NCBI GenBank assembly: GCA_951406725.2
Contig: OX597828.1
Span: 59,768,001-59,832,000 of the forward strand
Direction of reading: 5' to 3'
From: Octopus vulgaris
Lineage: Eukaryota
DNA: 64,000 bases
The position numbers and the translations under genes were made by a program. Positions 4,146 through 58,523 of this stretch are shown in pieces (within the stretch, counting starts at the first letter, position 1; each line of letters starts with the position of its first letter). Under the pieces are notes generated by a model, which worked only from the letters and a program-made list of their open reading frames with translations, was not told the origin of the DNA and did no database searches.

Positions 4146-4339
4146 GTAGCAGTAAGAGTGGCTACGTAGCTTGCTTTCCAAACACGGTGTTTCTGGTTCT
4201 GTCCAACTACGTGGCCCCATGGGCAAGTGTCTTCCAATATAGCCTCGGACAGACCAACGTTTCTGAGTAGATTTGGTACACGGAAACAGAAAGTAGCCCG
4301 TGGTATATAGATAGGTGTGTGTATATATATATATATATA

Positions 4340-16570: not shown

Positions 16571-17202
16571 CTAGCAGTATCGCCCGGCGTTGCTTGGGTT
16601 TGTAAGGGAAATAACTATATAAGCATTTTTAGAGAGTTATAGCCAAAAATTAGCAAAAAATGCATTAAAAATGGAAAAAATATGATGGTAAATTTTTTTA
16701 AAAATCGTTGACTCATCGTAGACATTTTTAGAGAGTTACTTCCCTTATATAATAGTGAAAAAATGCATTAAAATGGAAAAATCTATGGTAAATTTTTTTT
16801 TAAATCGTAGACTCATGTAGACGCTTTCTTAGCCATTTCTGTTTTGGTGTCTTCAAGCCATGAAGTCGTTGTTCTAAAAGAATGCTGGTCTCCTTGACAA
16901 CGCATTACGACGTTGATTTCCTTACACTCCCTTCCCCACAGGTGCAGGTGTGAGCGTGGATGCCAACTCCGCCGCCATCGACACACGAAAAATTATGCAT
17001 TAAAATGGAATAAAAAATGTTAAATTATTTTAAAAATCGTAGACTCATCGTAGACGCGCGCTAATACTCAGACGGGCTCGATATGAATCACGACTATAAG
17101 CTACCCGAATTTGGTTAAACTGCACCGCAACATGTGGGAGTAGTTAGGAATCTAAATCGAAGGGGACAGACACTCACACAACTACAGTTTTATATATATA
17201 GA
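16571..17202 (-). mobile_element. Non-autonomous Helitron (~630 bp)
   Basis: The minus strand begins TCTATATATATAAAACTG and ends in a GC-rich hairpin (cccaagcaacgccggg) followed by CTAG. It is inserted between A and T within (TA)n, and a related copy lies at 56912. Confidence 0.8.
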
Positions 17203-17289
17203 TATACATAGCGCGGTAGTGGTGAGATATGACAGCAAAGAAAAGCATACATTCACTCTCTGCATGCAATTATACTCGGAAAGTTCGTG

Positions 17290-18636: not shown

Positions 18637-18670
<34 letters not shown>

Positions 18671-18793
18671 ATATGTCAGATATATATAAACTTAGATATT
18701 TTTCGACCAAAGATTGGTCCAGACCATGTCTAACTTAATTGCACCACCTGATAGGATTATTCGACTCCTGTTTAAGTCAAGTTTTGTTTAAGT

Positions 18794-20450
18794 CTAGTTT
18801 TGTTCAAGTAGTGAGTTCTTGTTGGGTGAGTTGTATCCAATTATGGGTGGCTTATCTGGTATTCTTTGAAGGAATCTATCCAGACTCTGTTTGAAGTTGA
18901 TGGGATCCTTTTCCTCTTTGATCTCTCTCCGGACAATGTTAAATAGGGCAGGGCCTGTTGAGGAAAAGAAATTATGTTGCAGTGTACATGTATGTTGTGA
19001 TCTTGAATTGGGCAGGGGACGTATAGCCCGTGGTCCAAGTCTTGGATGAACCTTGAAGCTAATGTTTAGGTCGTTTGGGCATAGTTGGCGGTATATTTTC
19101 CACATCGTACAAATGATGTACCGCTCACGGCGACGCTGGTGGGAGTAAAGTTTCAAGGCTTTAAGGCGATCCCAATAATTGAGAGCAGCCACGCCTTCAA
19201 TTCGTTTAGTGAATGCCCTCTGGGGTGACTCAATTCTGGAAATGTTTTGTCTTTTGTGAGGAGACCACAGTGGGCAGCAGTATTCAAGGTGTGGCCGTAC
19301 AAAGGAGGAAAAAAGTGGTATGATGACACCTTTTTCTCTGGACCGGAAAGTTCTTAAGATCCAGGAACTCATCCTACGAGCTATATCGACCTTGTCGATG
19401 TGTGCACTCCAACTGAGATCGTCATCAACAATTACACCCAGGTCTCTGATATTGTTAGAGGCTGTGAGCGGTTCCCCTGAAGGAAGAGAGTATGGTTGTT
19501 TTAGTGAGGAATTTCTTCCAAAATGCATCAGCTCAAATTTTCCCCTCGTTCAGTTGCATTTTGTTTGTCTGCCCATTGACTCACATCATATAGATCAGAC
19601 TGGAGTTGAGTTCGGTCTGCTTCTTCATTGACGATTTGCTGGAGCTTGGTGTCATCAGCAAATATTTTCACTTTGCAGTAATGTACGACACTGGAAAGGT
19701 CGTTTATGTAGATTATGAAGAGTAGCGGACCCAAGACAGTCCCCTGAGGGACACCGCTGGTGACTTTTGCTTGGCTTGAGTGGACTCCATCAACTACATG
19801 TTGTGTTTTATTCGCCAGGAAATACTTGATCTAGTGTAGAACATTTCCACTGATTCCAACATTTGCCAATTTTGAGAGTAGGATATTATGGTCGACCCTG
19901 TCGAACGCTTTACTGAAGTCAAGATATATGACATCAGAGTTCGAACCTGTTCCCAAGGCTTTGAGTACATCTTCAATGTGGTGTAAGAGCTATGTTAGAC
20001 AGTCCCTGCCACAGCGAAAGCCATGCTGATTTGCATTTAGGAGTTTCTGGGTCTCCAGGAAGTCAGCCATCCTTGATCTTAACACTCTTTCAAACACTTT
20101 GATGATGTGGGAGGTGAGTGAGATTGGGTGATAGTTGAATGCGAGGGATCTGTTTCCCTGTTTGAAAACCGGGATGACTGACTGGGATAGAAACTGTTTT
20201 GGTATATACCTGCATCTAACGAATTTTTCCAGAGGTTGGTCAGAGGGACTGCAAGTTGAAATCTACATTCCTTCAGGAGACTAGCGGGAAATCTATCAGG
20301 GCCTACAGCAGAGTAATGTTTGACCTCATTTATTGCTGCTACGATGTCGGTGGCAGTGAAGGTTATGTCTGCGATTTCATGTTGGGAGTCAACTTCGTTT
20401 GCTTCTCTTACGTCAATATCAGTGGGAACACGAAAGACAGCAGTATTGTT
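18794..20450 (-). pseudogene. Decayed CR1-like LINE RT, copy 1
   Basis: Broken ORFs contain GPDRFPASLLKEC, LGPLLFIIYINDL, FADDTKL, RPHLEYCCPLWSP and QRRRERY, with several frameshifts. Confidence 0.9.
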
Positions 20451-20749
20451 TCTGTAATATATATATATAGAGAAACATGTATATACGTATAGATATTTAT
20501 ATATATGTATATGTGTGTATGTTTTGGTGTCCCCAAAACCGCTTGAAACCAATGTCGGTGTTTTTTTACACTCCATTAACTTATCCGTTCGGGAAAAGAA
20601 GACCAATAGAATTAATACTAGACTGACGTAGATAAAAGTCCTAGTGTCGATTTGCTCTAGAAAAGGCTGTGCTCAAGCATTGGCACAGTGAAATGACTAA
20701 ACAAGGAAAAGAGTAAAAGTGTATGCTTTACGTCTGAATATTATATTGT

Positions 20750-21035
20750 AGAGTTAATTAGCTTCCATAATACATTTTGATAATAGTCGTAATGTAATAA
20801 AATGTTAGGGAGGTAACTTTTGAAGATCTCCCTTTCTAGAGTTACCCCCCTTGCATATTATTAATTAAATTATAATATGCGAGGTAAGTAACTCTTCGAA
20901 GGAAGATAACTCCAAAATCTTCCAGAGTTACCTCCCTTACATCTAATTAAATTACTATTATTAAATTAGAATATTCAAGGGAAATAGGTACAAAATTTTC
21001 CAGAGTTACTTCCCTTACATGTAATTACATTACGA
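20750..21035. repeat. Block of short inverted motifs (agagttac..ccc / ggg..gtaactct) immediately before the telomeric tract; also at 39240-39530, ~15090-15330, ~35370-35600 and ~5950-6140
   Basis: AGAGTTACYTCCCTT and its reverse complement recur in alternating orientation. Confidence 0.7.
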
Positions 21036-21092
21036 TTGGGGTTGTGGTTAGGGTCGGGGTCGGGGCTAGGGTTAGGGTTTGGGTTGGGGTTA
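21036..21092 (+). repeat. Short degenerate telomeric tract (TTAGGG/TTGGGG/TCGGGG)
   Basis: Sequence ttggggttgtggttagggtcggggtcggggctagggttagggtttgggttggggtta. Confidence 0.85.
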
Positions 21093-22835
21093 GCCTCGTT
21101 CACACATCATGCGTCCATACAAACACGCCTCGTTCACACATCATGCGTCCATACAAACACGCCTCGTTCACACATCATGCGTCCATACAAACACGCCTCG
21201 TTCACACATCATTCGTCCATACAAACAAGCCTCGTTCACACATCATGCGTCCATACATACACGTCTCGTTCACACATCATGCGTCCATACAAACAAGCCT
21301 CGTTCACACATGCGTCCATTCAAACGAGCCTCGTTCACACATGCGTTTATTCAAACGAGCCTCGTTCACACATGCGTTCATTCAAACGAGCCTCGTTCAC
21401 ACATCATGCGTTCATTCAAACGAACCTCGTTCACACATCATGCGTCCATACAAACAAGCCTCGTTCATCCATCATGCGTCCATACAAACAAGCCTCGTTC
21501 ACACATGCGTCCATACATGCAAGCCTCGTTCACACATCATGCGTCCATACAAACAAGCCTCGTTCACACATCAAGCGTCCATACAAACAAGCCTCGTTCA
21601 CACATCTTGCGTCCATACAAACAAGCCTCGTTCACACATGTGTCCATACACACAAGCCTCCTTCACACATCTTGCGTCCATACAAACAAGCCTCGTTCAC
21701 ACATCAAGCGTCCATACAAACAAGCCTCGTTCACACATCATGTGTCCATACACACAAGCCTCGTTCACAAATCATGCGTCCATACAAACAAGCCTCGTTC
21801 ACCCGTCATGCGTCCATACAAACAAGCCTCGTTCACCCGTCATGTGTCCATACAAACAAGCCTCGTTCACCCGTCATGCGTCCATACAAACAAGCCTCGT
21901 TCACCCGTCATGCGTCCATACAAACAAGCCTCATTCACCCATCATGCGTCCATACAAACAAGCCTCGTTCACCCATCATGCGTCCATACAAACAAGCCTC
22001 GTTCACCCATCATGCGTCCATACATACAAGCCTCGTTCACCCATCATGCGTCCATACAAACAAGCCTGGTTCACACATCAAGCGTCCATACAAACAAGCC
22101 TCGTTCACACATCATTCGTCCATACATACAAGCCCCGTTCACACATCATGCGTCCATACCAACATGCCTCGTTAACCCATCATGCGTCCATAAAAACAAG
22201 CCTCGTTCACACATCATGCGTCCATACAAACAAGCCTCGTTCACACATCTTGCGTCCATACAAACAAGCCTCGTTCACACATCATGCGTCCATACAAACA
22301 AGTCTGGTTCACACATCAAGCGTTCATACAAACAAGCCTCGTTCACCCATCATGCGTCCATACAAACAAGCCTCGTTCACCCATCATGCGTCCATACAAA
22401 CAAGCCTCGTTCACCCATCATGCGTCCATACAAACAAGCCTCGTTCACCCATCATGCGTCCATACAAACAAGCCTCGTTCAACCATCATGCGTCCATACA
22501 AACAAGCCTCGTTCACCCATCATGCGTCCATACAAACATGCCACGTTCACACATCATGCGTCCATACGCACATGCCTCGTTCATACATCATGCTTCCAAA
22601 CAAACAAGCCTCGTTCATCCATCATGCGTCCATACGCACATGCCTCGTTCATACATCATGCGTTCATACAAAAAGCCTCGTTCACACATGCGTCCATACA
22701 AACAAGCCTCGTTCACACATGCGTCCATACAAACAAGCCTCGTTTACACATCATGCGTCCATACAAACAAGCCTCGTTCACACATCATGCGTCCATACAC
22801 ACAAGCCTCGTCTACACATCATGCGTCCATACATA
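21093..22835 (+). repeat. 34-bp tandem satellite (gcctcgttcacacatcatgcgtccatacaaacaa), ~50 units, with a 31-bp variant lacking CAT
   Basis: Unit starts at 21093 and 21127 give a period of 34. Units are head-to-tail with no spacers. Confidence 0.95.
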
Positions 22836-22846
22836 GATATTCATAC

Positions 22847-25800
22847 ATTCAGGGACATGTAATTCAGGGGCAGGTAATTCAGGGGCATGTAATTCAGGCG
22901 AAGGTAATTCAAGGCAGGTAATCCAGGGGCAGGTAATTCAGAGGAATGTAAATCAGGGGCAGGTAATCCAGGTGCATGTATTTCAGGAACATGTAACTGA
23001 GGGTCAGGTAATTCAGGGGCATGTAATTAAGGGGCAGGTAACTCGGAGGAATGTAATTCAGGGGCAGGTAATTCAGGGACACGTAATTAAGGGGCATGTT
23101 CAGGTAATTAAGGGGCATGTAATTAAGGGGCATGTAATTCAGGGGCATGTAATTCAGGGGCATGTAATTCAGGGGCATGTAATTCATGGGTGGGTAATTC
23201 AGAGGAATGTAATTCAGGGGCATGTAATTTAGGGGAAGGTAATCCAGGGGTAATTCAGGGACAGGTAATTTATAGGAATGTCATTCATGGGCAGGTAATT
23301 CAGGGGCTTGTAGTTCAGGGTTAGGTAATCCAGGGTATGTAATTCAGGGGCAATCAATTCAGATGAAAGGTAATTCAGGGGCAGGTAATCTAGGTGCAGG
23401 TAATTCAGGGACATGTCATTCACGGGCAGGTAATTTAGGGGCTGGTAATTTAGGGATAGATAATTCAGAGGCATGTCATTCAGGGGCAGGTCATTCAGGT
23501 GCATGTAATTAAGAGGCATGTAATTGAGGGCCATGTAATTCAGGTGTTTGCAATTCAGGGGCAGGTAATTCAGATGCATGTAATTTAGGGGCAGGCACTT
23601 CAGGGGTATGTAATTCAGGTGTATGTTATTGAGGGGCAGGTAATTCAGGGGCAGGTAATTCACGGGCATGTAATTCAGGTGTATGTAATTCAGGGGCATG
23701 TAATTCATGGGCAGGTAATTCAGGGGTATGTAATTCAGGGGCATGTAATTCAGGGGCATGTAATTCAGGGGCATGTCATTCAGGGAAAGTAATTCAGGGG
23801 CATGTAATTCATGGGCTTGTAATTGAGGGGAAGGTAATCCAGGTGCAGGTGATTTAGAGGAATGTCATTCATTGGCAGGTAATCCAGGGGCAGGTAATTC
23901 AGAGGAATGTAATTCAGGGGAAGGTAATTCAGGGAGAGGTAATTTATAGGAATGTCATTCATGGGCAGGTAATTCAGGGTTAGGTAATCCAGGCGCATGT
24001 AATTCAGGGGCTTGTAATTCAGAGGAAAGGTTATTCAGGGGCAGATAATCTAGGTGCAGGTAATTCAGGGGTATGTAATTTAGGGATAGATAATTCAGAG
24101 GCAGGTCATTCAGGTGCATGTAATTAAGAGGCATGTAATTGAGGGGCAGGTAATTCAGGGCCATGTAATTCAGGTGTTTGTAATTCAGGGTCAGGTTATT
24201 CAGGTGTAGGTTATTCAGGGGCAGGTAATCCAGGGTTAAGTAATTCAGGGCCATGTAATTCAGGTGTTTGTAATTCAGAGGCAGGTAATTGAGGGGTATG
24301 TAATTCAGGGGCAGGTAATTCAGGTGCAGTTATTTCAGGGGCATGTAATTGAGGTGCAGGTAATTGATGGGCATGTAATTCAGTGGTAGGTAATTCAGGG
24401 AATTCATGGGTGGGTAATTCAGAGGAATGTAATTCAGGTGCATGTAATTCAGGGGTAATTTAGAGGGTTAAGTAATTAAGGGGCAGGTAATTCAGAGGGG
24501 TAATACAGGGACAGGTAATTTAGAGGAATGTCATTCAAGGTCAGGTAATTCAGGGGCAGGTAATTCAGGGGCATGTAATTCAGGGGCTTCTAATTCAGAG
24601 AAAAGGTTATCCAGGGGCAGGTAATCAAGGTGCAGGTAATTCAGGGGCAGGTAATTCAGAGGCATGTTATTCAGGGGCAGGTCATTCAGGTGCATGTAAT
24701 TAAGAGACATGTAATTGAGGGGCAGGTAATTCAGGGCCATGTAATTCAGGTATTTGCAATTCAGGGGCAGGTAATCCAGCGGCATGTAATTAAGGGGCAG
24801 GTAGTTCAGGGGCATGTAATTCATGGGCAGGTAATTGAAGGGCATGTAATTTAGGGGCAGGTAATTCAGGGGCATGTAATTCAGGTATATGTAATTCATG
24901 GGCAGGTAATTCAGGTGCATGTTAATCAGGGACTCAGGGTCATGTAATTCAGGGGCAGGTACTTCAGGTGTATGTAATTCAGGGGCATGTAATTCAGGGG
25001 CATGTCATTCAGGGAAGGTAATTCAGGGGCATGTAATTCGGGCATGTAATTCAGGGGCGGGTAATTGAGGGGAAAGTAATCCAGGTGCAGGTGATTTAGA
25101 GTAATGTCATTCATTGGCAGGTAATTCAGGGGTAGGTATTCAGAGGAATGTAATTCGAGGGAAGGTAATTCAGGGACAGGTAATTTATAGGAATGTCATT
25201 CATGGGCAGGTAATTCAGGGGCAGGTAATTCAGGGGTATGTAATTCAGGGGCATGTAATTCAGATGAAAGGTAATTCAGGGGCATGTAATTTAGGTGCAG
25301 GTATTTCAGGGGCAGGTAATTTAGGGATAGATAATTCAGAGGCACGTCATTGAGGGGCAGGTCATTCAGGTGCATGTAATTAAGAGGCATGTAATTGAGG
25401 GGCAGGTAATTCAGGTGTTTGTAATTCACGGGCAGGCAATTCAGATGCATGTAATTTAGGGGCAGGTACTTAGGGGTGTATGTAATTCAGAGGCATGTAA
25501 TTCAGGGGCATGTAATTTAGGGGCAGGTAATTCACGGGCATGTAATTCAGGTGTAATTCATGGGCAGGTAATTGAGGGGCAGGCAATTCAGGGGCATGTA
25601 ATTTAGGGGCAGGTAATTCACGGGCAGGTAATTCAGATGCATGTAATTTAGGAGCAGGTACTTAGGGGGGTATGTAATTCAGAGGCATGTAATTCATGGG
25701 CATGTCATTCAGGGGCATGTAATTTAGGGGCAGGCAATTCAGGGGCATGTAATTTAGGGGCAGGTAATTCATGGGCAGGTAATCCAGGGGCAGGTAATTC

Positions 25801-27351
25801 AGGTTTAGGTAATCCAGCGGCATGTAATTCAGGGGCAGGTAATACAGGGGTATGTAATTCAGGGGCATGTAATTCAGATGAAAGGTAATTGAGGGGCAGG
25901 TAATCTAGATGCAGGTATTTCAGGGGCATGTCATTCACGGGCAGGTAATTTAGGGATAGATAATTCAGAGGCATGTCATTCAGGGGCAGGTCATTGAGGT
26001 GCATGTAATTAAGTGGCATGTAATTGAGTGGCAGGTAATTCGGGGCCATGTAATTCAGGTGTTTGTAATTCAGGGGCAGGTAATTCAGGGGAAGTTAATT
26101 CAGGGTCAGGTTATTCAGGGGCAGGTAATCCAGGGTTAAGTAAGGGGTATGTAATTCAGAGCATGGTAATTCAGAGGCAGGTAATTGAGGGGCATGTAAT
26201 TAAGGTGCATGTAATTCAGGTGCATGTAATTCAGGGGCTTGTAATTGAGGTGCAGGTAATTGAGGGGCATGTAATTCAGGTGTATGTAATTGAGGTGCAT
26301 GTAATTCATGGGTGGGTAATTCAGAGGAATGTAATTCAGGGGTAATTCAGGGAAGGTAATTTAGAGGATTGTCATTCAGGGTTAGGTAATCCAGTGGCAT
26401 GTAATTCATGGGCTTGTAATTCAGAGGAGAGGTTATTCAGGGGCATGTAATTCAAGGGCAGGTAATCTAGGTGCAGGTAAATCAGGGGCTGGTAATTTAG
26501 GGATAGATAATTCAGAGGCATGTCATTAAGGGGCAGGTCATTCAGGTGCATGTAATTAAGAGGCATGTAATTGAGGGGCAGGTAATTGAGGGGCATGTAA
26601 TTCAGGGGCAGGTAATTCAGGTTCAGGTAATTTAGGGGCATGTCATTCACGGGCAGGTAATTCCGGGGCAGGTAATTTAGGGATAGTTAATTGAGGGGCA
26701 TATCATTCAGGGTCAGGTCATTCATGTGCATGTAATTAAGAGGCATGTAATTGAGGAGCAGGTAATTCAGGGGCATCTAATTCAGGGGTATGTAATTCAG
26801 GGGCAGGTAATTCAGGGGCATATAATTCAGGGGCATGTAATTCAGGGGCAGGTAATTCAGGTGTATGTAATTCAGGGGCAGGTAATTTAGAGGAATGTCA
26901 TTCATTGGCAGATAATTCAGGGACATGTAATTCAGGGGAAGGTAATTGAGGGGCAGGTAATTCAGGTGCATGTAATTCAGGGACATGTAACTCAGGGGCA
27001 GGTAATTCAAGTGCAGGTAATACAGGGGCATGTAATTAAGGGGCAGGAAATTCAGGGCCATGTAATTCAGGGCCATGTAATTAAGGAGCAGGTAATTGAG
27101 GGGCAGTTAATTCAGGGGCAGGAAATTCAGGGGCATGTAATTCGGGCATGTAATTCATGGGCAAGGTAATCCAGGGGCAGGTAATGCAGCGGTTGGTAAT
27201 TTAGAGGAATGTCATTCAGGGGAAGGTAATTGAGGGGCAGGTAATTCAGGTGCATGTAATTTAGGGACATGTAACTCAGGTGCAGGTAATTCAAGGGCAG
27301 GCAATACAGGGTCATGTAATTCAGGTGCATGTAATTCAGGGCCACGTAATT
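22847..27351 (+). repeat. 15-bp tandem satellite (gtaattcaggggca[t/g]), ~300 units, with higher-order structure
   Basis: A GTAATT anchor recurs every 15 bp. The array translates as (PLNYM/L)n on the minus strand and (VIQGH/Q)n on the plus strand. Confidence 0.95.
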
Positions 27352-27977
27352 ACCTCCCTTAAGTAGTTATCTCCCTTAAGTAGTTATCTCCCTTAAGTAT
27401 GTAGTTATCGTAATATACGCTTTGTCGCTCTGATACTCTTTCTGTTATTTCACTGCGACCATGGTGGAGCACCGCCTTTAGTGAAGGAAATCAACCCCAG
27501 GAATTATTCTTTGTATGCCTATTACTTAATGCATAGGTCTCTTTTGCAGAACCGAAAAGTTACGGGGACGTAATGTTCGATATACTTATTTAGTAGGTAT
27601 TTATTTATTGTAAGAATTTCAATTATCATAAATTATGGGCTAGGAAAAATACTAGAAACTTTTTTGATATACCTATTGGGGCTCCTTGTGTGTGTGGGAC
27701 TGTTTTTATTTATGTGAGTGTGGGTATTTTCATTTCAGTGTTTGTGTGTGAGTGTTTTTATTTCTGTGTGCGCGAGTGTGTGAGCGACTGAGTGTTTCTA
27801 TTTGTTTGTGTGTGTACGTCACTTACAACTACAACGAGCACTTCGACCATTTGTAAGATACCCACATTTGTGATCACTAAATACTAAATCAAAATAAGTC
27901 AATTTATTGCACCTTTATATATACACACACACACACACATGTATGTGTTTGTGTATTTATATGTCGTATATAGCGTC

Positions 27978-35115: not shown

Positions 35116-38100
35116 TGTTTATACATATAGATATTTATATATATGTACATGCGTGTATGATTCGATGTCCCCAAAACCGCTTGACAAGCGATGCCGGTGA
35201 TTTTTACACTCCATCAACTTATCCGTTCGGGAAAAGAAGACCAACAGAATAAATACTAGACTGATGTAGGATAAAATTCTTTGTGTCGATTTGCTCAAGA
35301 AAAGGATGTGCTCCAGCATGGGCACGGTGAAATGACTTAACCAGGAAATGAGTAAAAGTAAATGTAAGGGAAGGAAGATTTTTCTAGTTATCTCCCTTTC
35401 CAGAGTTACTCCCCTTTCTTTTTATTAGTAATTAAATTATAATATGCAAGGTAAGTAACTCTACAAAGGAAGATAACTCCAAAATCTTCCAGGGTTACTT
35501 CCCTCACATATACTGATAATTGTTAAATATACTAGGCAAGGGATGTAACTCTAGAAAGGGAGATAATTACAAAATCTTCCAGAGTTACTTCCCTTACATG
35601 TATCCGTCTTTGTGTACGTGAAACTGTTTTTATTTTTGTGTGTGTGAGTGTCGGTAGTTTCATTTCAGTGTTTGTGTTTGTGTGATTGTTTTTATTTCTG
35701 TGTGTATGTGTGTGTGAACCTATGTGCGTTTTTATCCGTTTGTGTCTGTGCGACATTTACAGCTACAACAAACACTTTAAGCATCTCCAAGATACCCACA
35801 TTTGCAGATCCCTAAGTTCTAAATGAAAAGAAGTTCAATTTATTACACCTTTAGCGACTTCAGATTTGTGAGTATTAAGCATCCAATGCCTCCCGTATCT
35901 ACATACCTGGATTGGCCATAATTGGCCTCATTCGGATATCTCTCGGGTGTGGAATATTTATAGCTTAACTTTTGTAGATTTTGGGAAGTTCATAGATGTT
36001 ACTGGCTTTGCAGTGAAATCTAGTCAAGCAATTTGTCTGGTTTTTTGTTTAATCGTGTTGGAACTGGTGGATAAGAGTAGACAGTTTGGTCATTACCTTC
36101 GAACGACTGTAGCTGTTTTCCTCCCTGTATTTTAGCGGTTCGGCAAAAGAGAATAAGTTAGAATAAAATACTAGGCTTACAAAGAAGTGCTGCGGACGAT
36201 GTGATCGACTAAAGGCGGCGCTCCAGTATTTATATATATATATGTATATATACTTACAGATATACGTGTATATACCCACATACGCATATATACTATATAA
36301 AACAAAAAAGAAACTTGATTATGTCATTATTACTTTATTACAGATATTACAACATGAAACGTATTATATGACGTTAGGGAAGTAACTCTAGGAGATATTT
36401 TCTGCGATCTCCCTAGTGAACAGGTCATGGACTTTTCTCGTTATTTACTCTTTTACTCTCATTTACTTGTTTCAGTCATTTGACTGTGGCCATGTTGGAG
36501 CACGACCTTTAGTCGAGCATATCGACCCCAGGACTTATTCATTGTAGGCCTAGTGCTTATTCTATCAGTCTCTTTCGCTGAACCTCTAAGTTATGGGGAC
36601 GTGAACAGACTAGCATCCGTTGTGTAGCAATGTTTGGGAACAAAGACACACACGCACACATAAACATATATATGACTGGAGTTTTCCCGTTTCCTTCCAC
36701 CAAATCCAATCACAAGACTTTGGTCGGCTCGTGGCTATAGTAGATTTTTCAAACGATGCTGGTGTGTTTTCCTCCCTGTATTTCAGCGGCTCGGCAGAAA
36801 AGAATAAGAATAAATACTAGGCTTAGAAAAAATAAGTGCTGCTGACGATGTACTCGAAGAAGATAGATTGGTATATATATATATATATATATATCTAAGT
36901 AATTAATTAATAAGGGTGAGAGAATTAGATACTAATTTAATAGTATATCTATTCTACACCAAGTGGCCTAGTGCTCCGAGAAACCTGGATTATTATAATA
37001 TTTTATAATATATTATAATATTTTTACAAAATAAATATAAGAGAGTGGTCACATAGTGACCACTCTCTTATATTTATATATCTAAGTATATATTTATAAA
37101 GATATATCAGATATATATAAACTTAGATAAACTTAGATGTGTTTCGACCAAAGATTGGTCCAGGCCATGTCTAACTTAATAGCACCACCTGATAGGATTA
37201 TTCGAATCCTGGTTAAGTCAAGTTTTGTTCAAGTAGTGAGTTCTTGTTGGGTGAGTTGTATCCAGTTTTGTTCAAGTAGTGACTTCTTGTTTGGTGCGTT
37301 GTATCCAATTATGGGTGGCTTATCTGGTATTCTTTGAAGGAATCTATCCAGACTCTGTTTAAAGTTGATGGGATCCTTTTCCTCTTTGATCTCTCTCGGG
37401 GAAAATGTTCAATAGGGCAGGGCCTGTTAAGGAAAAGAAATTATGTTGTAGTGTACATGTATGTTGTGATCTTGAATTGGGCAGGGGACGTATAGCACGT
37501 GGTCCAAGTCTTGGATGAACCTTGAAGCTAATGTTTAGGTCGTTTGGGCATAGTTGGCGGTATATTTTCCACATCGTACAAATGATGTACCGCTCACGGC
37601 GACGCTGGAGGTAGTAAAGTTTCAAGGCTTTAAGGCGATCCCAATAATTGAGAGAAGCCATGCCTTCAATTCGTTTAGTGAATGCCCTCTGGGGTGACTC
37701 AATTCTGGAGATGTTTAGTCTTGTGTGAGGAGACCACAGTGGGCAGCAGTATTCAAGTTGTGGCCGTACAAAGGAGGAAAAAAGTGGTATGATGACACCT
37801 TGTTCTCTGGACCGGAAAGTTCTTAAGATCCAGGAACTCATCCTACGAGCTATATCGACCTTCTTGTTGATGTGTGCACTCCAACTGAGATCGTCATCAA
37901 CAATTACACCCAGTTCTCTGATATTGTTAGAGGCTGTGAGCGGTTCCCCTGAAGGAAGAGAGTATGGCTGTTTTAGTGAGGAGTTTCTTCCAAAATGCAT
38001 CAGCTCAAATTTTCCCTCGTTTCGTTGCATTTTGTTTCTGTTTGCCCATTGACTCACAGCATATAGATCAGACTGGAGTTGAGGTCTGCTTCTTCATTGA

Positions 38101-39530
38101 CGATTTGCTGGAGCTTGGTGTCATCTGCAAATATTTTCACTTTGCAGTAATGTACGACACTGGAAAGGTCGTTTATGTAGATTATGAAGAGTAGCGGACC
38201 CAATAGATTATGAAGAGTAGCGGACCCAAGACAGTCCTCTGGGGGACACCGCTGGTGACTTTTGCTGGGCTTGAGTGGACTCCATCAACTACAACATGTG
38301 TTGTATTCGCCAGGAAATACTTGATCCAGTGTAGAACTTTTCCACGGATTCCAACATTTGCCAATTTTGAGAGTAGGATATTATGGTCTACCCTGTCGAA
38401 CGCTTTACTGAAGTCAAGATATATGACATCAGAGTTCGAACCTGTTCCCAAGGCTTTGAGTACATCTTCAATGTGGTGTAAGAGCTGTGTTAGACAGTCC
38501 CTGCCACAGCGAACGCCATGCTGATTGGCATATAGGAGTTTCTGGGTCTCCAGGAAGTCAGCCATCCTTGATCTTAAAACCCTTTCAAACACTTTGATGA
38601 TGTGGGAGGTGAGTGAGATTGGGCGATAGTTGAGTGCGAGGGATCTGTTTCCCTGTTTGAAAACCGGGATGACTGACTGGGATAGAAACTGTTTTGGTAT
38701 ATACCTGCATCTAACGAATTTCTCCAGAGGTTGGTCAGTGGGACTGCAAGTTGGTGTTTACATTCCTTCAGGAGACTAACGGGGATTCTATCAGGGCCTA
38801 CAGCAGAGTAGTATTTGACCTCATTTATTGCTGCTATGATGTCAGAGGGAGTGAAGGTTATGTCTGCAATTTTGTGTTGGGAGTCATCTTCGTTCGCTTC
38901 TCTTACGTCAATATCAGTGGGAGCACTAAAGACAGCAGTATTGTTTCTGCAATATATATAGAGCAACATGTATATACATATAGATATTTATATATATGTA
39001 TATATGTGTGTGTTTCGATGGCCCGAAAACCGTTTCACAAGCGATGCCGGTGATTTTTACACTCCATCAACCTATCCGTTCGGGAAAAGAAGACCAACAG
39101 AATAAATACTAGACTGACGTAGATAAAAGTACTAGTGTCGATTTGCTCTAGAAAAGGCTGTGCTCCAGCATGGGCACAGTGAAATGACTAAACAAGGAAA
39201 GGAGTAAAAGTGTATGCGTTACGTCTGAACATTATATTGTAGAGTTAATCAGCTTCCATAACATTTTGATAATAGTCGTTATTTAATGAAATGTAAGGGA
39301 GGCAACTTTTGAATTTTATTTTAGTTATCTCCCTTTCTAGAGTTACTCCCCTCGAACATTTCAATTTAATAATACATAATAGTAATTTTATTAGATGTAA
39401 GGGAGGTAACTCTGGAAGATCTTTTAGTTATCTTTCTTTCTAGAGTTACTCCCCTCGAACATTTCAATTTAATAATACATAATAGTAATTTAATTAGATG
39501 TATGGGAGGTAACTCTGGAAGATCTTTTAG
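27352..39530. repeat. Large composite repeat unit, copy 2
   Basis: Largely colinear with copy 1, but lacks the 4340-5781 LINE, the internal ~4.5-kb duplication and the 16571-18640 insertion cluster. Confidence 0.85.
37225..38950 (-). pseudogene. Decayed CR1-like LINE RT, copy 2
   Basis: Contains YLDFSKAFDRVDH, SGVPQRTVLGP and RPQLEYCCPLWSP. A 26-bp tandem duplication at ~38178-38228 breaks the frame. It is a paralog of 18794-20450. Confidence 0.9.
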
Positions 39531-39927
39531 TTAGGGTTGGGTTAGGGTTGGGGTTGGGATTGGGGTTGGGGTTGGGTTAGGGTTGGGTTAGGGTTTAGGG
39601 TTAGGGGTTAGGGTTAGGGTTTTAGGGTTAGGGTTTTAGGGTTGGGTTAGGGTTAGGGTTAGGGTTGGGGTTGGGTTGGGGTTAGGGTTGGGTTTAGGGG
39701 TTAGGGTTAGGGTTTGGGGTTAGGGTTAGGGTTAGGGGTTGGGGTTAGGGTTGGGTTGGGGTTAGGGGTTAGGGTTTGGTATATACCTGCATCTAACGAA
39801 TTTCTCCAGAGGTTGGTCAGTGGGACTGCAAGTTGGTGTTTACATTCCTTCAAGAGACTAACGGTTAGGGTTAGGGTTGGGGTTAGGGTTGGGGTTAGGG
39901 TTAGGGTTGGGGTTAGGGTTAGGGTTA
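39531..39927 (+). repeat. Interstitial telomeric tract (TTAGGG with TTGGG/TTGGGG/TTAGGGG variants) interrupted by a 90-bp LINE fragment
   Basis: Read directly from the sequence; the G-rich strand is plus throughout. Confidence 0.95.
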
Positions 39928-40737
39928 CAACATAGGTAACACTGCTAACCCGGCCACCTTAGACAGCTATTGGTTGACCTATAGCTACCTTGGCTTTTCA
40001 GCAAACTAATCAATTTAACTCTGATCACATTCTGCTAAAGTTTTCAATCAACAGTGTTTGTGTGTATCAACATTTTGTCTTTAACAAAAATTACAAAAGA
40101 ACAACAATAACATGGGCAGATGAAGGCTGGCACTCTGTTGTTTTCTTCATTCACACAACAAAGGACAGAGAATCTTTAAACAAAAACAGTTGATGTGAAA
40201 TAGAAGAATTATATAGCATAACAAGGTATTTTTTTTTCTCTTTCTTTGCGTTCGGTTTTGTAGGAGGGGTTGTGATATTTTTGTAACTGTTTCGTGTTTA
40301 CTGTAACTTTTTTTTTTTTGGCAATCATTTTATTTTATTTTATTTTATTTTATTCATTCTTTTTTTTGCTTTTTTGTTGTTTTTGTTTTTTGTATTATAA
40401 CATTTGTCAGTAGGTTGGGGGTGTTTAACAAATAAAAGTTGAGCTTCAAAATAAACCAGTAAACTTTCTTTGAACACGCAAAGCAGGCTCGGTGTAGGTT
40501 TAACAAGAGGATGGAAAAGAAAAAGAGATTAAACAAATTTTAAGAAACTGAGTCATAACAGTATGTTGAAGAAATAGTAAAGGTTTTCATAGTGTCCCTG
40601 TTAAGTGATGCCTACTATATACGGGACCCTTCCTTACACACTCCCTATTTTTCTTAAAAACTAGGCCCTTCTGTACAAAATTAAAAGTCACTCAGTTGAA
40701 AGACAACAATTTTTTTTTCAAAAAACCTATAATGATA

Positions 40738-40855
40738 TTTCCTATAAGCATGCCTATAGATTCCTTCTTCGATAAGCATGCCTAGAGATTTCTTCCTCTA
40801 TAAGCATACCTATAGATTTAGAACTCATCTATAAGTGTGCCTATAGATTTCTTGT
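40738..40855 (+). repeat. Short ~29-bp minisatellite, ~4 units (ctataagcatgcctatagatt...)
   Basis: ataagcatgccta/ataagtgtgccta recurs at ~40745, 40772, 40800 and 40831. Confidence 0.7.
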
Positions 40856-41169
40856 ATAGGGAAGGTGAAATGGTAAGTTATAAAAAAACATCCAGTCCTG
40901 AGAACTGAAAACAAATTATGGACTTGGTTTGTCAAGGAACGATCATCTGCAACAGGATGATGAGGTGGTCACTGATTTCTTCAGTACATATAACAATGAG
41001 AAATGGAGGGTTAGTGAGGTTCATGTCTTTCCCAAAGAGCATTAACAATGAAATATATGAAGCATTTCCAGCTGGGAATCAAAATCCCATCAGATTGTTG
41101 ATTTCTCAGGAACTTACCGGCTTAAACACAGAAGCCACCAATATCAATAATGGTTTCCGGTCTAGGCAC

Positions 41170-41444
41170 AAAGTCAGCAATTTTATGGGGAAAAGGGTCA
41201 GTTGATTACATCAACCCCAGCACTTAACTGGTACTTTTTTTATCAACCATGGACGGATGAAAGGCAAAGTTGACCTTGGCGGGATTAGAACTCAGAATTT
41301 AAAAAGCTGAAATAAACACACAAGGCATTTTTTCAAATTGCTCCAACAATTCTGCCATGGTGCCGCCTTAATGATAATAATAACAACAACAATTGGTACT
41401 TATTTTATTGAGCCCCGAAAGGAGGAAAGGCAAAGTTGACCCCA

Positions 41445-41486
<42 letters not shown>

Positions 41487-42080
41487 CCTTTATACTATAG
41501 GCGCAAGGCCTGAAATTTGGCAAAGGGGACAGTCAATTATATTGACCGCAGTATTTAACTGGTACTTATTTTATTGACCCCTGAAAGGAGGAAAGGCAAG
41601 TTGACCCCAAATAATAATAATAATAATAGTTTCTAACTTAAGCACAAGACAAGCAATGTAGGAGATTAGTTGATGACACTGACTCCTGTACTTAACAGGT
41701 AATTTATTTTATTGACCCAGAAAGGATGAAAGTTAAAATAAACCTTGGCAGGATTTGAACTCAGAATTTAAAGGGCCAGAAAAAATACCACAAGACCCCT
41801 TTATTTAATATTCTAACAGTTCTACCAAATCACTGCCCTACACTAATGATTGAAACTACCACTTGTTTCTATCTTAAGCACAAGGAACAAACATTTTCGG
41901 TGTAAGTGTACAGCCATCCTATTCAAACCACCCAGGATTCAACTGGTATAAACTTCATCAAACTTAGAAAGGTGAAAAGTAAAGATGATGCTTGTACTTG
42001 ACTAGTGCTTTATTTTATTGATCCCTGAATGATGAAACACAAAGATGATCTTAGTTTGGATTTGAACCTGAACTACAAAG
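41170..42080 (-). mobile_element. Cluster of degenerate tRNA-derived SINEs with (AAT)n tracts
   Basis: The motif 'actggtacttattttattgaccc..gaaaggatgaaaggcaaagttgacc' recurs; it is the reverse complement of the SINE at 45495. Confidence 0.75.
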
Positions 42081-42088
42081 AAACATGA

Positions 42089-44491
42089 CTAAATGTAAGA
42101 ATATATTGTATTTACACTGGTCCCTTGGTAACGTTTTGAAGATTTATGTCCTGAGCAGTGTTTCTTGAATGTTGATGTTGGCTGTGGGGAAAGAGCAACA
42201 ACATCTAAATTATTTAAGTAATTACTATCAGAAACAGAATCACAATGGGATGATAATTTCGATGAGGTGTGCTTACTGCGGTGATGTCGTCTGTGTTTGT
42301 GTTTTTTGTGTTTTTTATGACTTTTCCGCCGCCGTTTGCAAGCAATGATTTCTACACTTGAAGAATGCGATCGATTTTGAGAAACAACAGGGCTTGAAGG
42401 TCTGTAGCCATCTCTCTTTCTGCACGATTCATTGTTGTAATTAGTATCATAGTTGTAAATACCGCTGGAAAGGTCTGGCTGAGAAGAGCGGTGAGGATAA
42501 CCAACCCGATAGTAATTGTTGCAGGACAGTGGAAACATTATAGATTTCTGAGAAATGTGTAGCTGCAGAGATGAAGAAGAGGATGCAGTAGCTTCATCAC
42601 GTTGGTACCGACAACGAGATCGTTCTTCTCTAGAGTAACTAGAAGTCCGTTTGCTCTTGGAACGCCGAGAACGAGATCTAGATCTAGACCGTGATCTAGA
42701 AGAGTTGGATTGGCTATAGGAATAATGGCTGAGTCTGTGACTGTGGCGATGTCGTCGTTCACCACTATAAGATGAACTTGAGACATACCTGTGACGAGTT
42801 CTGCTCTGACCTCGCTCCTTACGAGAGGACTTTCTTTTTTCAGAATGGCCCTCTTTTGCATTTTCCCCACTCGTTGATGGTTGCCTTACGACAGTCAATG
42901 AATTTTTGTCTTTTGTCTCCTCAGTTTCTTCTTCAACAGAATCATCGTCTAAATCTGATATTAATATTGGCGAACGTTCAGCCCAAGGTTTTTCATAGGC
43001 AGTAATGATCACATCACTGTCGCCATCATCATTTTCCTCATCCCTGTTCAATTCAGTTCCACTGGAGTCAGAGCTGCTGTTGTCCTTCTTATCTGGCCGT
43101 TGATCAGTAGGCTCGGATTTCATGGAACTAGAGACCAGACTTGTGTCATGACTAGTTGATTCAACAGCACTAGTTGATGGTTCTGTAACTGACGTGCTGA
43201 AGATACCAGAAGGGCCTGGTTGAGGAGACTCCCAACCTGAAATTGCTGTTTGACTTGTGGTTGCCTCTCGGTCATTCTGACTCGTTTCAGCAGATGGTTC
43301 CCAAGAGGAGGAAGTCATAACTATTTGCTGTGAAGGATGACCTAGACTGATCGACAGAGATATACTGCTTTGATTGCCAGATGTAGTAGCAGTGGCAGTT
43401 GCTGTAGTTGTCTCTCGTGGTGAAAGTACAATAACATCATCATCACTGGATGAAGCTTCACTAGTATCTACCAGCTGAGTGAAGGGCATATATTGTGAAT
43501 TAGCATCATAGGAGCGCATATCATGCAATGGTGACTTTGCAAAATTCTCAAATTCATGAATGAACTGCAATGTATTTCGACCAACAAATGGAAAAATATG
43601 TTGGTAAAATTCCTCACTGCTGATTGGATAGCGCTTTACTAAATCAAGAATAAGTTCCATCACAAAGGTCACATGATTTTCTTGGTTACGTAGCAATGCA
43701 TTTAGTTCACGGTTTAACCAAGGGGCTAGTCGATGAACAGCTGTGGGGTTTTTCCTCAAGAAATCGGGTTTAATGTTACGGCAACCATGTAGATGCCTGT
43801 TTTTCACTACGCGTAAATTATTTCTGTATATATTGCGTCGGAATTCGACAGAGGCTGTCTGTGTTTGCTGTTGTTGTGACCGACGTAAAGAACGACGTAA
43901 ACCAGGTCTGGTATTGTAGTCAAGCTGCTGTGGTGCCATCAGAATCTCATCTCTCTGATGCTGGTTTTGCAGACCAAGCAATCGATCAATTGTTAAAGTT
44001 GTACGATAGCGAAACCGTTTCTCATTAGGTGGTTCATGTTTCTGAACATCGTACTGGTCATAGTCATCATAGGAACGCACATTGTGAATAATGCTCTTGA
44101 AAGGTTGCTTACAGAGTGGACATTCTGTTTTAATCTTTGACCACTCCAAAAGGCAAACGTAACAGAATGTGTGGAAACAACTGTCGGTGAAGGATTTATT
44201 CTCCAACTTAGATAGACAAATCGAACAGTTTGGCTCAGGCGACTGTCGTTGACTCCCATCACTTTCTTTATCAGCATTTTTTTCCTCTTCACCAATTTTG
44301 GGGTTACCAATATCTTTCTCATTGGCTGAGTTAGTGCCTAGACCAGTCTCATTGTTGGCCAGTTCACTGCTCTGTGACAGAGAAGTGGCACTGGCTGCAG
44401 TACTACTTGAGCCCTTGCTACCTTCCTTTTTACCTTTCCTTCTGTCCTTCTTGTCAGTATCTTTTCTCTTTTTCCTCTCCCCTTTCTCCAT
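42089..44491 (-). CDS. TOPORS: E3 ubiquitin/SUMO ligase Topors, single coding exon (~800 aa from ATG at 44491; ORF open to 44524)
   Basis: Has a C3HC4 RING (CSICL...CFHTFCYVCLLEWSKIKTECPLCKQPF), the Topors-type RFRYRTT and HRLAPWLNREL motifs, SIM-like VIVL/VIIT motifs next to acidic runs, and RS-rich and K/H-rich regions. Confidence 0.95.
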   Translation of the reverse strand: MEKGERKKRKDTDKKDRRKGKKEGSKGSSSTAASATSLSQSSELANNETGLGTNSANEKDIGNPKIGEEEKNADKESDGSQRQSPEPNCSICLSKLENKSFTDSCFHTFCYVCLLEWSKIKTECPLCKQPFKSIIHNVRSYDDYDQYDVQKHEPPNEKRFRYRTTLTIDRLLGLQNQHQRDEILMAPQQLDYNTRPGLRRSLRRSQQQQTQTASVEFRRNIYRNNLRVVKNRHLHGCRNIKPDFLRKNPTAVHRLAPWLNRELNALLRNQENHVTFVMELILDLVKRYPISSEEFYQHIFPFVGRNTLQFIHEFENFAKSPLHDMRSYDANSQYMPFTQLVDTSEASSSDDDVIVLSPRETTTATATATTSGNQSSISLSISLGHPSQQIVMTSSSWEPSAETSQNDREATTSQTAISGWESPQPGPSGIFSTSVTEPSTSAVESTSHDTSLVSSSMKSEPTDQRPDKKDNSSSDSSGTELNRDEENDDGDSDVIITAYEKPWAERSPILISDLDDDSVEEETEETKDKNSLTVVRQPSTSGENAKEGHSEKRKSSRKERGQSRTRHRYVSSSSYSGERRHRHSHRLSHYSYSQSNSSRSRSRSRSRSRRSKSKRTSSYSREERSRCRYQRDEATASSSSSLQLHISQKSIMFPLSCNNYYRVGYPHRSSQPDLSSGIYNYDTNYNNESCRKRDGYRPSSPVVSQNRSHSSSVEIIACKRRRKSHKKHKKHKHRRHHRSKHTSSKLSSHCDSVSDSNYLNNLDVVALSPQPTSTFKKHCSGHKSSKRYQGTSVNTIYSYI

Positions 44492-45437
44492 TATCACAAT
44501 TCTATCAATGTGACCACCACTCAAGATATATAGAGACTAGGTGGTAGTGGTGTTAAACCATATGGGGCACTTTGAGCAGCCCTAAATAGGGTGCCCCAAT
44601 ATTAAAAGAAAATAAGGTGGCAAGCTGGCAAAACTGTTTGCATGCCGAACAAAATGCTTTTTGCAGCATTTCTTTCAGGTTTATGTCCCAAGTTCAAATT
44701 CTGCTGAGGTCGACTTTGCTTTTCATCCTTTTGGGGTCAGTGAAATAAGTACCAGTTGAGAATTGGGGTCAACGTAATTGACTAGACCCTTCTCTTTCAA
44801 AATTTCAGGCCTTGTACTTATAGCAGAAAGAAATATTAAAAGCAAATCTTAGAAATTAGGAGGGTGTCTGTTCTGACCTGGCAGATATATTAATCAAAGA
44901 TGTTCCAGCCTTGACCATCACATTTATATCTTCTTTTTTTTTGTTTTGTCTCTATATTCACTATATTATCCAACAGTGTTCTTCCATTTTTAAAATGGTA
45001 GGAAGTCATTTGAGGAAGGCTTGGCTGTTATTTCTTGCAATTTCAATGAGTACATAGAGGATACCTTGTTTTGTTGTGTTGTGAACTATGTTCTTGTTAT
45101 TATTGTTTAACCCTGCCCACTCACCCCGGCTCGTTGGTAGACCTAAAATGTACTCCAGCCACATCATCCTGGGTTTTTTTTTTTTTTTTTTTTTTCTCTT
45201 TCTGATAAAACATTTCTACTCCTACATTATCTAATGTACCCTTCCCTTCTTTAAGACAGGGTGGGGTAATTTGGTTGCTATTTCTAACTGGCCAAATGAC
45301 CACATAAGGGCTCTGCTGTTGATTTTTGAAACTGATAATTAAATATGTCACCTCAGTCATCTTCATTTAAGGTTTGCATGGAATTAGCATTTCCTCAGTG
45401 CATCCCCCTCCCCTCTAATGACCTCAGTAAAGAGCAA

Positions 45438-49282: not shown

Positions 49283-50227
49283 TCATGTGTTGTTTTTCTG
49301 AATTTTTTTCTTCAATATTTTCGGAGGTCCAAGGAATTTGAACGTCGTTTGACAAGTGGAACAAATCGGACTGAAGGAACAGAAAATTGACAGACAAACG
49401 GAGCAGACGTAACCAATATCGATGAGGTTCCGGTGGCAAAAACAAGCAGCCCTGTAATCAACTTGAACCCTTGCTGGCAGAGACAGTTTATGTCTAACAT
49501 GAGGATCAGGAAGAAAGACGCACAGTAGATACTGTAAGATGCCGGAGACTGTGGGTAGCTTGAGGTAGGTGCCACCAGTAATATCACACGCCTGTTGTAG
49601 CAGACTGGAGTCGTCCCCCAAGATACAACTGTCAATGATGACATTCTGTTTCTGAGCAGAGAAAACAGTATTCATAAAGTTCATATATTGGGCTGGGTTA
49701 TCTTGAGATCCTTTCATTATCAGGATCCGACTGGAAAGTTTATCTCCAAGATGAAGCTCCTTCTCCATTCGGTTGATGAAGCAAAGTGCCATGCCAATGG
49801 AACCAGCAACTACACTGTCAGAATAAAGTTGGCCAACCTCTTGGTCAACCATAAGATTTTTTAACTGTTCAGTTATTTGGTCATCAACCTGGGCAAAAAG
49901 TTCATAACGGCCATCATTTAGTGGTCGAGGAGGAACATTAGCCGCTGTGGTGGTGCCGTTCTCTTCGGTTACCTCATTGGTTACCACTTTTGGTTCCTCT
50001 TCTTTGCCCTTTGGGTACAGGAAGTAGCTTTGGTTGCTGTGTGCTGCGATGATGGCCAATTTGTTTGCTGGTTTCATCATGAGATGGGAGTTGGCAAAAA
50101 CCAACATGCTGTCTAAATACCGGAATATATTAAACTGTGAGTTTTCTTCAAGAAAACACTGACCCCACCATACTGGGTCAGTATCAATAATGACAACCAA
50201 CAAACTGCATTCAATTTCGCTGGGCAT
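49283..50227 (-). CDS. GTF2H3: TFIIH subunit p34/Tfb4, intronless CDS (314 aa from ATG at 50227)
   Basis: Has a vWA-like N-terminus (SLLVVIIDTDPVWWG, FANSHLMM), QYMNFMNTVFSAQKQNVIIDSC, LLQQACDITGGTY, and a C-terminal zinc finger VDYRAACFCHRNLIDIGYVCSVCLSIFC. Confidence 0.96.
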   Translation of the reverse strand: MPSEIECSLLVVIIDTDPVWWGQCFLEENSQFNIFRYLDSMLVFANSHLMMKPANKLAIIAAHSNQSYFLYPKGKEEEPKVVTNEVTEENGTTTAANVPPRPLNDGRYELFAQVDDQITEQLKNLMVDQEVGQLYSDSVVAGSIGMALCFINRMEKELHLGDKLSSRILIMKGSQDNPAQYMNFMNTVFSAQKQNVIIDSCILGDDSSLLQQACDITGGTYLKLPTVSGILQYLLCVFLPDPHVRHKLSLPARVQVDYRAACFCHRNLIDIGYVCSVCLSIFCSFSPICSTCQTTFKFLGPPKILKKKIQKNNT

Positions 50228-56911: not shown

Positions 56912-57203
56912 CTAGCAGTATCGTCGGCGTTGCTCGGGTTTGTAAGGGAAATAACTATATAAGCATTTTTAGAGAGTTACTTCCCTTATATAAAACCGAG
57001 CGAAAAATGGATTAAAAATGGGGAAAAGTGATGGTAATTTTTTTTAAATCGTAGACGCACACTAATACTCAGAAGGGCTCGATATGAATCACGACTATAA
57101 GATACCCACTTTTGGTTAAACTGCACCGCAAAATATGGGAGTAGTTAGGAATCTAAATCTGAGTAGACAGACACACACACAACTACAGTTTTATATATAA
57201 AGA
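56912..57203 (-). mobile_element. Internally deleted copy of the non-autonomous Helitron
   Basis: Same ends as 16571-17202 (ctagcagtatcg..cggcgttgctcggg and cacaactacagttttatatata..ga), inserted in (TA)n. Confidence 0.8.
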
Positions 57204-58523
57204 TATATATATGTATGTATATATGTTTTAGTTAAAATTAAAGCTTAGGTAGGGAACTTTAAGGTGTAGTATGTGAACCTTGTTATGGGAATGTCCATTG
57301 TATTGTGCCTGTATAGCACATTCACTACTTGTGACTACCAGGCATCATCCGGGGTAGTAGTCTTTCATTGCTGGATGTACGTAGGGAATTTGTCAGTACA
57401 TGTTGAGTGTACAGAAGACAGAGCATACTGGAAGCGTTATGTAAGACAACGACAGTTTTGGCTTAATTCTACACTGCTCCTTAGTGAATGGGGATCGATG
57501 TAATGGAAACCTCTTCAGGCAACATAACTGCATGCATGGAAAACAGTTGTTAAACGATGATGATAATTATATATGTATATATATTTATTTTTATCACTAA
57601 AGTCATCTAGCAACATAGCAGCTAATTGCAAACTGAGGTGTTGTTTTAATTTCGCTTGGTGGGTCACATTTTGTGGCTGCCAGCAAAGACTGTATTGATG
57701 GAAAACATCAGAAAAGGAAAAATGGTCATCCTAAGAAACTTGCTGCCAGACATCCTGGGTAGACCTCATATGTTCATAGATCAGTTAAACAGAAATAACA
57801 ATTTCCTCTGATTAGCCATGCTGTTTGAGGAAACTGTTTTATGTGTCCCCTAAAGTGGGAAGAGCCAAGTGTTAAACCTGTATAATCCCATACGTTAAAT
57901 ATAATATGTGAACAGATTTCCTCATTGACTGGTCAGTCAGTTGTATGTCCTTGTTGCTTAAGGCCCTAGGTGATAATAAGCCTACTAATTTAGTCAGTCC
58001 AAAAATGTTGCTTTGGTGTTGTGACCTTCAGTGTTGTATGATTTATTATATATATCACCATCATTTAGTATCTTTGTTCCATGCCAGCATAGGTTGGAGT
58101 TTTTGATCATAATCTGATGTGTCCAAGGACTGCATTTAGCTCCAATGTCTGCTTTGTCATGGTTTTTATGGTTGGATGTCCTTTCTAACATCAACCAATA
58201 TTCTAATCCCACAGGCAGTCTCACTCCTTCCTCATCTTCTTTGTTTTAGAGGCATGGAATCCTACTCTTTCAGTAATGTGTGGACAGAGATCCTCGTTGA
58301 CACAGCATTCGTTTGTCATTGTAATCATCTTCTTAATGTCCTTGCATGCCTAGTTTGTTAAGATTTTCTGCAGCCAGATGTCTTCCCTGTCACCAACCTG
58401 TATTCGGTTCTAACCTGAGGCTGACCAAAGCCTTGTGTTTGGTCAACTGTAAGAAGCCTGTTCACACACACACACTTATATCTCTCTAATAATCCCATTG
58501 TCATCTCATCTTCTCCACCATAG

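Follow-up and report, generated by a model that had tools for sequence, protein, structure and literature searches.

The window, by which we mean the whole stretch of 64,000 nucleotides analysed here, holds an internal run of telomere-like repeats at 39530-39927. The approximately 39 kb to the left consists of segmental duplications, decayed LINEs, a repeat that we presume to be SINE-like, satellites and inverted-repeat (IR) blocks, and gene-bearing DNA lies to the right, with single-copy genes from 2.2 kb on. The features are as follows.

20781-21035, plus strand: IR block of the first copy of a duplicated block (copy 1), with 41-base arms that close at 21035, where its tract starts; folding z -8.81
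21036-21093, plus strand: telomere-like tract of copy 1, short and more decayed (58 bases, two exact hexamers, three C); 34-bp and 15-bp satellites come after it
37070-39374: second copy of the duplicated block (copy 2; partner at 18639-20874), made of a decayed LINE, the presumed SINE-like repeat and the start of an IR block
38182-38987, minus strand: broken LINE reverse-transcriptase region (RVT_1, E 1.4e-18 on 38182-38757; open reading frames broken)
38693-38782, plus strand: likely donor of the 90-base insert, 89/90 identical to 39775-39864
39272-39533, plus strand: IR block with a 103-bp tandem unit in 2.4 copies, from repeat detection and folding
39530-39533, plus strand: GTTA overlap, common to the repeat unit and the telomere repeat, read directly from the letters (chance 0.016-0.04)
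39530-39779, plus strand (G-rich): telomere-like tract 1, 41 units, no C in 250 bases
39775-39864, plus strand: insert of 90 bases within the tract, a direct copy of 38693-38782 whose overlaps with the repeats are 5 bases (left) and 2 bases (right)
39863-39927, plus strand: telomere-like tract 2, 10 units, seven TTAGGG and three TTGGGG
39928-42088: non-telomeric DNA after the tract, downstream of the RING-finger gene, which makes the tract internal
42089-44536, minus strand: 815-codon open frame with a C3HC4 RING finger (open-frame and domain search)
49283-50224, minus strand: Tfb4/GTF2H3 gene (Pfam Tfb4, E 1.4e-98)

On the gene side, we take the RING-finger frame to be TOPORS-like. The Tfb4 frame was 100% identical over 313 amino acids to an Octopus vulgaris protein (next match, 79%), which identifies the host as an octopus, and its coding region is a single intronless open frame. 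The DNA directly after the tract (39928-40400) had no other match in the window except a TTTTA run.

The IR block at 39272-39533 ends inside one of its own units. The preliminary description of this DNA had reported a 103-bp unit that is repeated and then cut where its own bases fit the register of the telomere repeat, and both statements held, coordinates and letters included. TRF gave a period of 103 and 2.4 copies at 39281-39533, and the two full units differed at 4 of 103 bases. In the first pass (39418-39433) AGTTA is followed by TCT; 103 bases later AGTTA, the GTTA of which is 39530-39533, is followed by GGG. We compared this point among 11 plus-strand modules, hand-picked for containing it: in all ten siblings of the junction module the next base was T (TCT in eight), and GGG followed in 0/10. 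These results indicate that the unit is truly truncated mid-module at 39530-39533. Under a model in which a random break in the 103-bp unit is joined to (TTAGGG)n in random phase, the chance of an overlap of at least 4 bases was 0.04, that of exactly GTTA 0.016, and that of the set GT, GTT or GTTA 0.026; 4-base seeds were available at 5 of the 103 positions. The overlap is mildly unusual and, as a single junction selected after the fact, modest evidence. The predicted fold of the block scored better than 200 of 200 shuffles (z -3.76), with arms that are short and imperfect (18 bases at 83%). An Rfam scan of 36800-42100 returned six weak microRNA-type hairpin matches, all far under the gathering score, and no structured RNA. 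The left edge of copy 2 of the duplicated block bears a perfect hairpin (37031-37077; arms of 22 bases, loop of 3).

All telomere-like units of the run are G-rich on the plus strand, and exact and variant units are mixed over about 400 bases, the 90-base insert included. In tract 1, exact TTAGGG makes up 17 of the 41 units, the A is missing in 17/41, and the first unit past the GTTA seed is already a variant. Changes in the two tracts are confined to run length and loss of A, and the absence of any C in 315 bases rules out ageing as the source of the variants. Since the changes are confined in this way and the insert has diverged at only 1 of 90 bases, it is likely that the tract was variable at birth, or else it was miscalled. 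Faithful telomerase would not yield such variants; they would be expected from capture of proximal variant repeats, from an error-prone enzyme or from errors in base calling. The unit order of tract 2 differs from that of tract 1 in an order comparison, which rules out that tract 2 is a direct copy of tract 1. As assembled, the run is not terminal: it ends at 39927, with gene-bearing DNA beyond. Its G strand points away from the repeat-rich left side and is in the wrong orientation to cap the gene side. No C-strand patch matching at least 17/24 bases was found anywhere in the 64-kb window, and fusion of telomeres head-to-head was ruled out, as no C-strand tract faces the G-strand tract. Just past tract 2, 39934-39950 holds a 10/11 match to the IR motif (39934-39944) and one C-strand unit, which may be chance.

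The 90-base insert was absent from the preliminary description, as were the internal position and the variant content of the tract. The insert is the most informative part of the run. Its likely donor stands 1,082 bases upstream, in LINE DNA, and is nearly identical to it, whereas the window paralog of the donor (20198-20283) is only 91.9% identical to the insert. At six of the six listed sites where public contigs differ, the insert keeps the donor letter, the other letter being the majority at five of them. These comparisons suggest that the insert was likely copied from its own locus or a very close duplicate. It is present as one copy in the window, with no amplified tandem array. A copy of nearby DNA bounded by overlaps of 1-6 bases is the mark of an insertion templated during microhomology-primed repair, and the insert, with overlaps of 5 and 2 bases, is such a copy. 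It is likely that a template-switching polymerase was at work inside the tract; the 4-base overlap seen at the left junction is what this process would leave there too.

The two copies of the 2.3-kb duplicated block matched at 90.7% by BLAST, with 121 mismatches in 2,223 aligned bases (5.4% diverged). The IR block of copy 1 is predicted to form a long hairpin, and its layout differs from that of copy 2 past the first module. The older copy 1 tract also contains TTGGGG-type units, and its junction, measured against the mirrored arm, has no in-register seed. The preliminary description had placed the copy 1 junction at 21036, a point other than that used in copy 2, and had read this as suggesting independent healing events. 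The letters bear out the difference in position, but because both tracts end one duplicated block the events need not be independent, and one origin explains them equally well: one ancestral tract, a later rearrangement and a microhomology deletion from GTTA to GTTA could account for both junctions as well as two healings.

We searched public data for the junction. Part of 37000-39533 was present in 20 of the 24 listed runs, the best of which held a share of 0.52 of the left-flank words. Four runs were compared over 38500-39570 with 39525-39570 left out, so that zero depth in 39544-39570 does not mean absence. From the two contig sets came 3,166 and 2,142 records, for the most part paralogs with 90-95% identity, and the two raw runs yielded one and seven reads from approximately 3% of each run. 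Among the 13 listed of 165 loose ends, none was telomeric. In one contig set, joints at high depth reached back approximately 104 bases, which indicates that the 103-bp unit is tandem in other copies too. Reads within 38500-39570 neither back nor contradict the assembly at the junction.

Telomere-like patches of the window tend to lie near the IR motif. Of the exact patches of at least 11 bases, 7/8 stood no more than 100 bases from the motif, the coverage of which is 11% in the whole window and 17% in the left part; the eight patches represent three to four independent loci, one of them a plain slippage duplication, and the cut-offs were chosen after looking. At 8142-8348, a 205-base piece (paralogs from 12665 and 31748) replaces part of the presumed SINE-like repeat and has the IR motif inside. 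Its left end carries two C-strand units and its right end three to four G-strand units, facing outward, and the two ends form an imperfect 20-base terminal inverted repeat, seen there only. No target-site duplication was identified for this piece or for the IR family. Its likeness to the IR blocks is at the motif level only, as 1 to 62 of 200 shuffles reach its score. Six other IR blocks (5950, 10077, 15087, 29465, 33297, 35359) end without telomere-like repeats. A mini-tract of two TTAGGG units at 13964-13975 (also at about 34190) was rejected as a telomere addition: it is a 6-base slippage duplication, found in two of six paralogs, one of them mismatched. A scan with a 20-base motif returned three metagenome and seven viral loci, none matching the window over more than approximately 60 bases at 75% and none with TTAGGG, and these were put down to chance. 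The association of the IR motif with telomere repeats is a lead rather than a result. For the IR block only, a partial likeness is to the mollusc element DTC84, of MITE or, as we assume, Helentron-like type. Both are dispersed and non-coding, with palindromic tandem internal units that vary between copies; the comparison is by description, and the paper on DTC84 makes no mention of telomeres (PMC3879986).

Among classes of telomeric sequence, the locus appears to fit the subtelomeric-type interstitial telomeric sequence (ITS) on features readable within the window, chromosomal place not being among them. Like those described in the available parts of PMC6410037 and PMC2246262, it is internal, has one orientation, mixes exact and variant units, and adjoins duplications, satellites and mobile elements; unlike them, its variants look born-in rather than aged, and it holds a local templated insert. 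Tracts mixing exact and degenerate units are set aside in PMC2246262 as probable recombination products. The short ITSs inserted at breaks in mammals, whose strongly enriched in-register overlaps are there credited to telomerase, share with the octopus tract an overlap 5' of the G strand, an internal position and an apparently deleted flank, whereas the octopus tract, whose insertion at a break is putative, is longer (approximately 400 bases when the insert is counted) and has a far higher share of variant units (PMC2246262). At a neotelomere, two to four in-register bases (GT, GTT or GTTA) are expected at the break, and here they are GTTA followed by GGG, as the telomerase seeding model predicts (PMC11293586). 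The tract lacks two defining features of this class, terminal position and canonical repeats, the latter on the premise that octopus telomerase is as faithful as the human enzyme. Human neotelomeres share the GTTA-GGG register, and the short two-sided octopus tract resembles telomere-spanning arm fusions; human neotelomeres are, however, long, terminal and mostly canonical, whereas the octopus tract is short, bounded and variant (10.1101/2022.10.31.514589; PMC11293586). Only approximately 10% of new telomeres in cancer obey the telomerase seed rule, and capture is the explanation to which the authors incline (PMC11293586). For one further octopod, a second-hand citation in PMC13218726 reports TTAGGG as the repeat of the telomeres.

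Systems in nematodes and yeast offer further parallels. At short worm telomeres, synthesis is described as starting at overlaps down to 4 nt, with polymerase theta-dependent template shifts within the subtelomere (10.1101/2022.09.04.506531), and TALT units consist of unique pieces between same-direction repeats (PMC8034613). The octopus run is like these in having a non-telomeric piece between same-direction repeats, with short overlaps; it differs in that the piece is single rather than an amplified terminal unit, the donor has no flanking repeats, and the source is a wild animal. In yeast, inverted repeats break and can gain telomeres, and divergence of the repeats cuts this sharply, according to the available text of PMC10164571.

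Our leading reading, held tentatively and with slightly less than even confidence, is that the internal tract is the scar left when a break in a hairpin-prone repeat was mended by microhomology-primed, template-switching repair. From left to right, the locus shows a unit truncated at GTTA, repeats rich in variants (250 bases), the copy of 90 bases, a further 65 bases of repeats and gene-bearing DNA, and the overlaps at the first three junctions are 4, 5 and 2 bases. The structure and the overlaps were observed; from them we infer the order of events and the enzymes. The IR block would have been broken or resected, with hairpins helping, and its 3' end, annealing by its GTTA, would have copied variant-rich telomeric DNA that was already present; alternatively, an older adjacent tract may have been drawn in by a deletion between two GTTA sites. 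The new end, terminating in TTTGG, would then have annealed 1.1 kb upstream and copied approximately 85 bases, after which repeats would have resumed from GG, through a switch back or by telomerase; last of all, this end would have been connected with the gene-bearing DNA. The agent would likely be polymerase theta or break-induced replication. We prefer this reading because a single process covers all three overlaps, and because the insert is local, the tract was probably variable when made and its first unit is a variant. Nothing points to a function for the scar.

Several observations count against the repair scar. The register at its left junction is precisely the one that telomerase is predicted to leave, and the mammalian short interstitial tracts attributed to that enzyme show a strong enrichment of in-register overlaps (PMC2246262). 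No source tract for the copying was found within the window, where tract 2 lacks the unit order of tract 1, and in the comparison of 38500-39570 without 39525-39570 none of the junctions was spanned by a read or contig. The IR arms are short and imperfect, and divergence sharply lowers inverted-repeat instability in yeast (PMC10164571). The main rival, which we rate as somewhat unlikely, is that telomerase added repeats at GTTA and that the short telomere later copied 90 subtelomeric bases, was re-extended and was joined to gene DNA. The seeding model has GTTA with GGG after it as its 4-base case (PMC11293586), the chance of the exact register being 0.016 and that of the GT/GTT/GTTA set 0.026; the direction of the G strand, away from the repeat-rich side, is the one that a telomere of that side would have; and human telomerase can add repeats at breaks, where uncapped products are expected to become internal (10.1101/2022.10.31.514589). 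Against this stand the variant first unit and the missing A in 17/41 units with no sign of age, the copy 1 junction without a seed (against the mirrored arm), and the dependence on one junction chosen post hoc; it would also require a hypothetical error-prone octopus enzyme or hypothetical later slippage. The preliminary description had proposed de novo telomere addition at this point. The GTTA-GGG register and its low chance (0.016-0.04) agree with that proposal, but the tract is non-terminal and variant-rich, and a 4-base overlap is equally a mark of microhomology; next to inner junctions with overlaps of 5 and 2 bases, it does not show a telomerase origin.

An assembly artefact seems rather improbable to us; in this reading, telomere-like repeats or a chimeric read would have linked the end of a repeat-rich contig to a gene-rich one, base-calling errors would have produced the variants, or both. 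The variation in run length and A loss would resemble typical long-read errors, the character of the DNA switches abruptly at the tract, with segmental duplications before it and genes after it, and no run shows the junction, the best reaching the 0.52 share of left-flank words. An artefact would nevertheless have to place an insert matching its donor at 89/90 between two tracts, of which tract 2 is free of length errors, and TTGGGG-type units occur in the older copy 1 tract too; moreover, the window has no N, and the zero depth at the junction corresponds to the left-out stretch 39525-39570 rather than to absence. It is also improbable that the telomere-like repeats are the built-in end of a non-autonomous mobile element, expanded here or moved by recombination between copies. 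The 8142-8348 piece, with its two paralogs, has the inverted motif and telomere-like units at both ends, 7/8 telomere patches lie near the motif against a coverage of 11-17%, and an 11-base motif-like match follows tract 2 (39934-39944). However, the junction cuts the module mid-way, unlike 10/10 siblings, and the six other IR blocks close without such repeats. The resemblance of the 8142 piece to IR blocks stays at the motif level (1 to 62 of 200 shuffles), the eight patches reduce to three to four loci under post hoc cut-offs, and the element would lack an identified target-site duplication.

A single junction carries little weight, as seeded addition, interstitial tracts and templated inserts are known from mammals, worms and yeast. 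What the repair-scar reading would offer is a natural record of several repair steps within 400 bases, in a group whose telomere structure has barely been studied. Full-text searches, with results judged by title and the start of the abstract and a coverage mostly outside subscription journals, returned no paper that deals with this repeat or with interstitial telomere tracts of octopuses. The locus would matter if the link between the IR family and telomeres held genome-wide, or if octopus telomeres were a mixed repeat. A broader conjecture, to which we assign a quite small probability, is that the abundant octopus IR family is a recurrent site of telomere gain, either a hairpin-fragile healing hotspot or an element with telomere-like ends, and that octopus telomerase writes mixed TTAGGG/TTGGGG. 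It draws on the adjacency of both long tracts and of the 8142-8348 piece to the motif, and on variants that are not decay; if true, the family would seed new ends and internal tracts throughout a genome in which chromosome reshuffling is known. The locus at 39530-39927 also flags an assembly spot worth checking.

Several minor observations concern other elements of the window. A 464-codon open frame at 4311-5705 carries a reverse-transcriptase domain (RVT_1, E 7.4e-25) and belongs to a partial LINE. A short minus-strand frame at 826-1155 had no Pfam match and presumably is the GIY-YIG endonuclease remnant of a Penelope-like element, as which it reads. A dispersed element with the same inverted motif lies on both sides of the tract (16574-17210 and 56913-57211), inserted in TA runs; we take its ends to be like those of Helentron-type non-autonomous elements. 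Between the copy 1 tract and a triplicated 17-base IR end, 21092-27399 is occupied by the 34-bp satellite (52 copies) and the 15-bp satellite (302 copies). Some units of the 15-bp satellite are 4-5 mismatches from the 18-base IR motif, and this satellite may derive from it.
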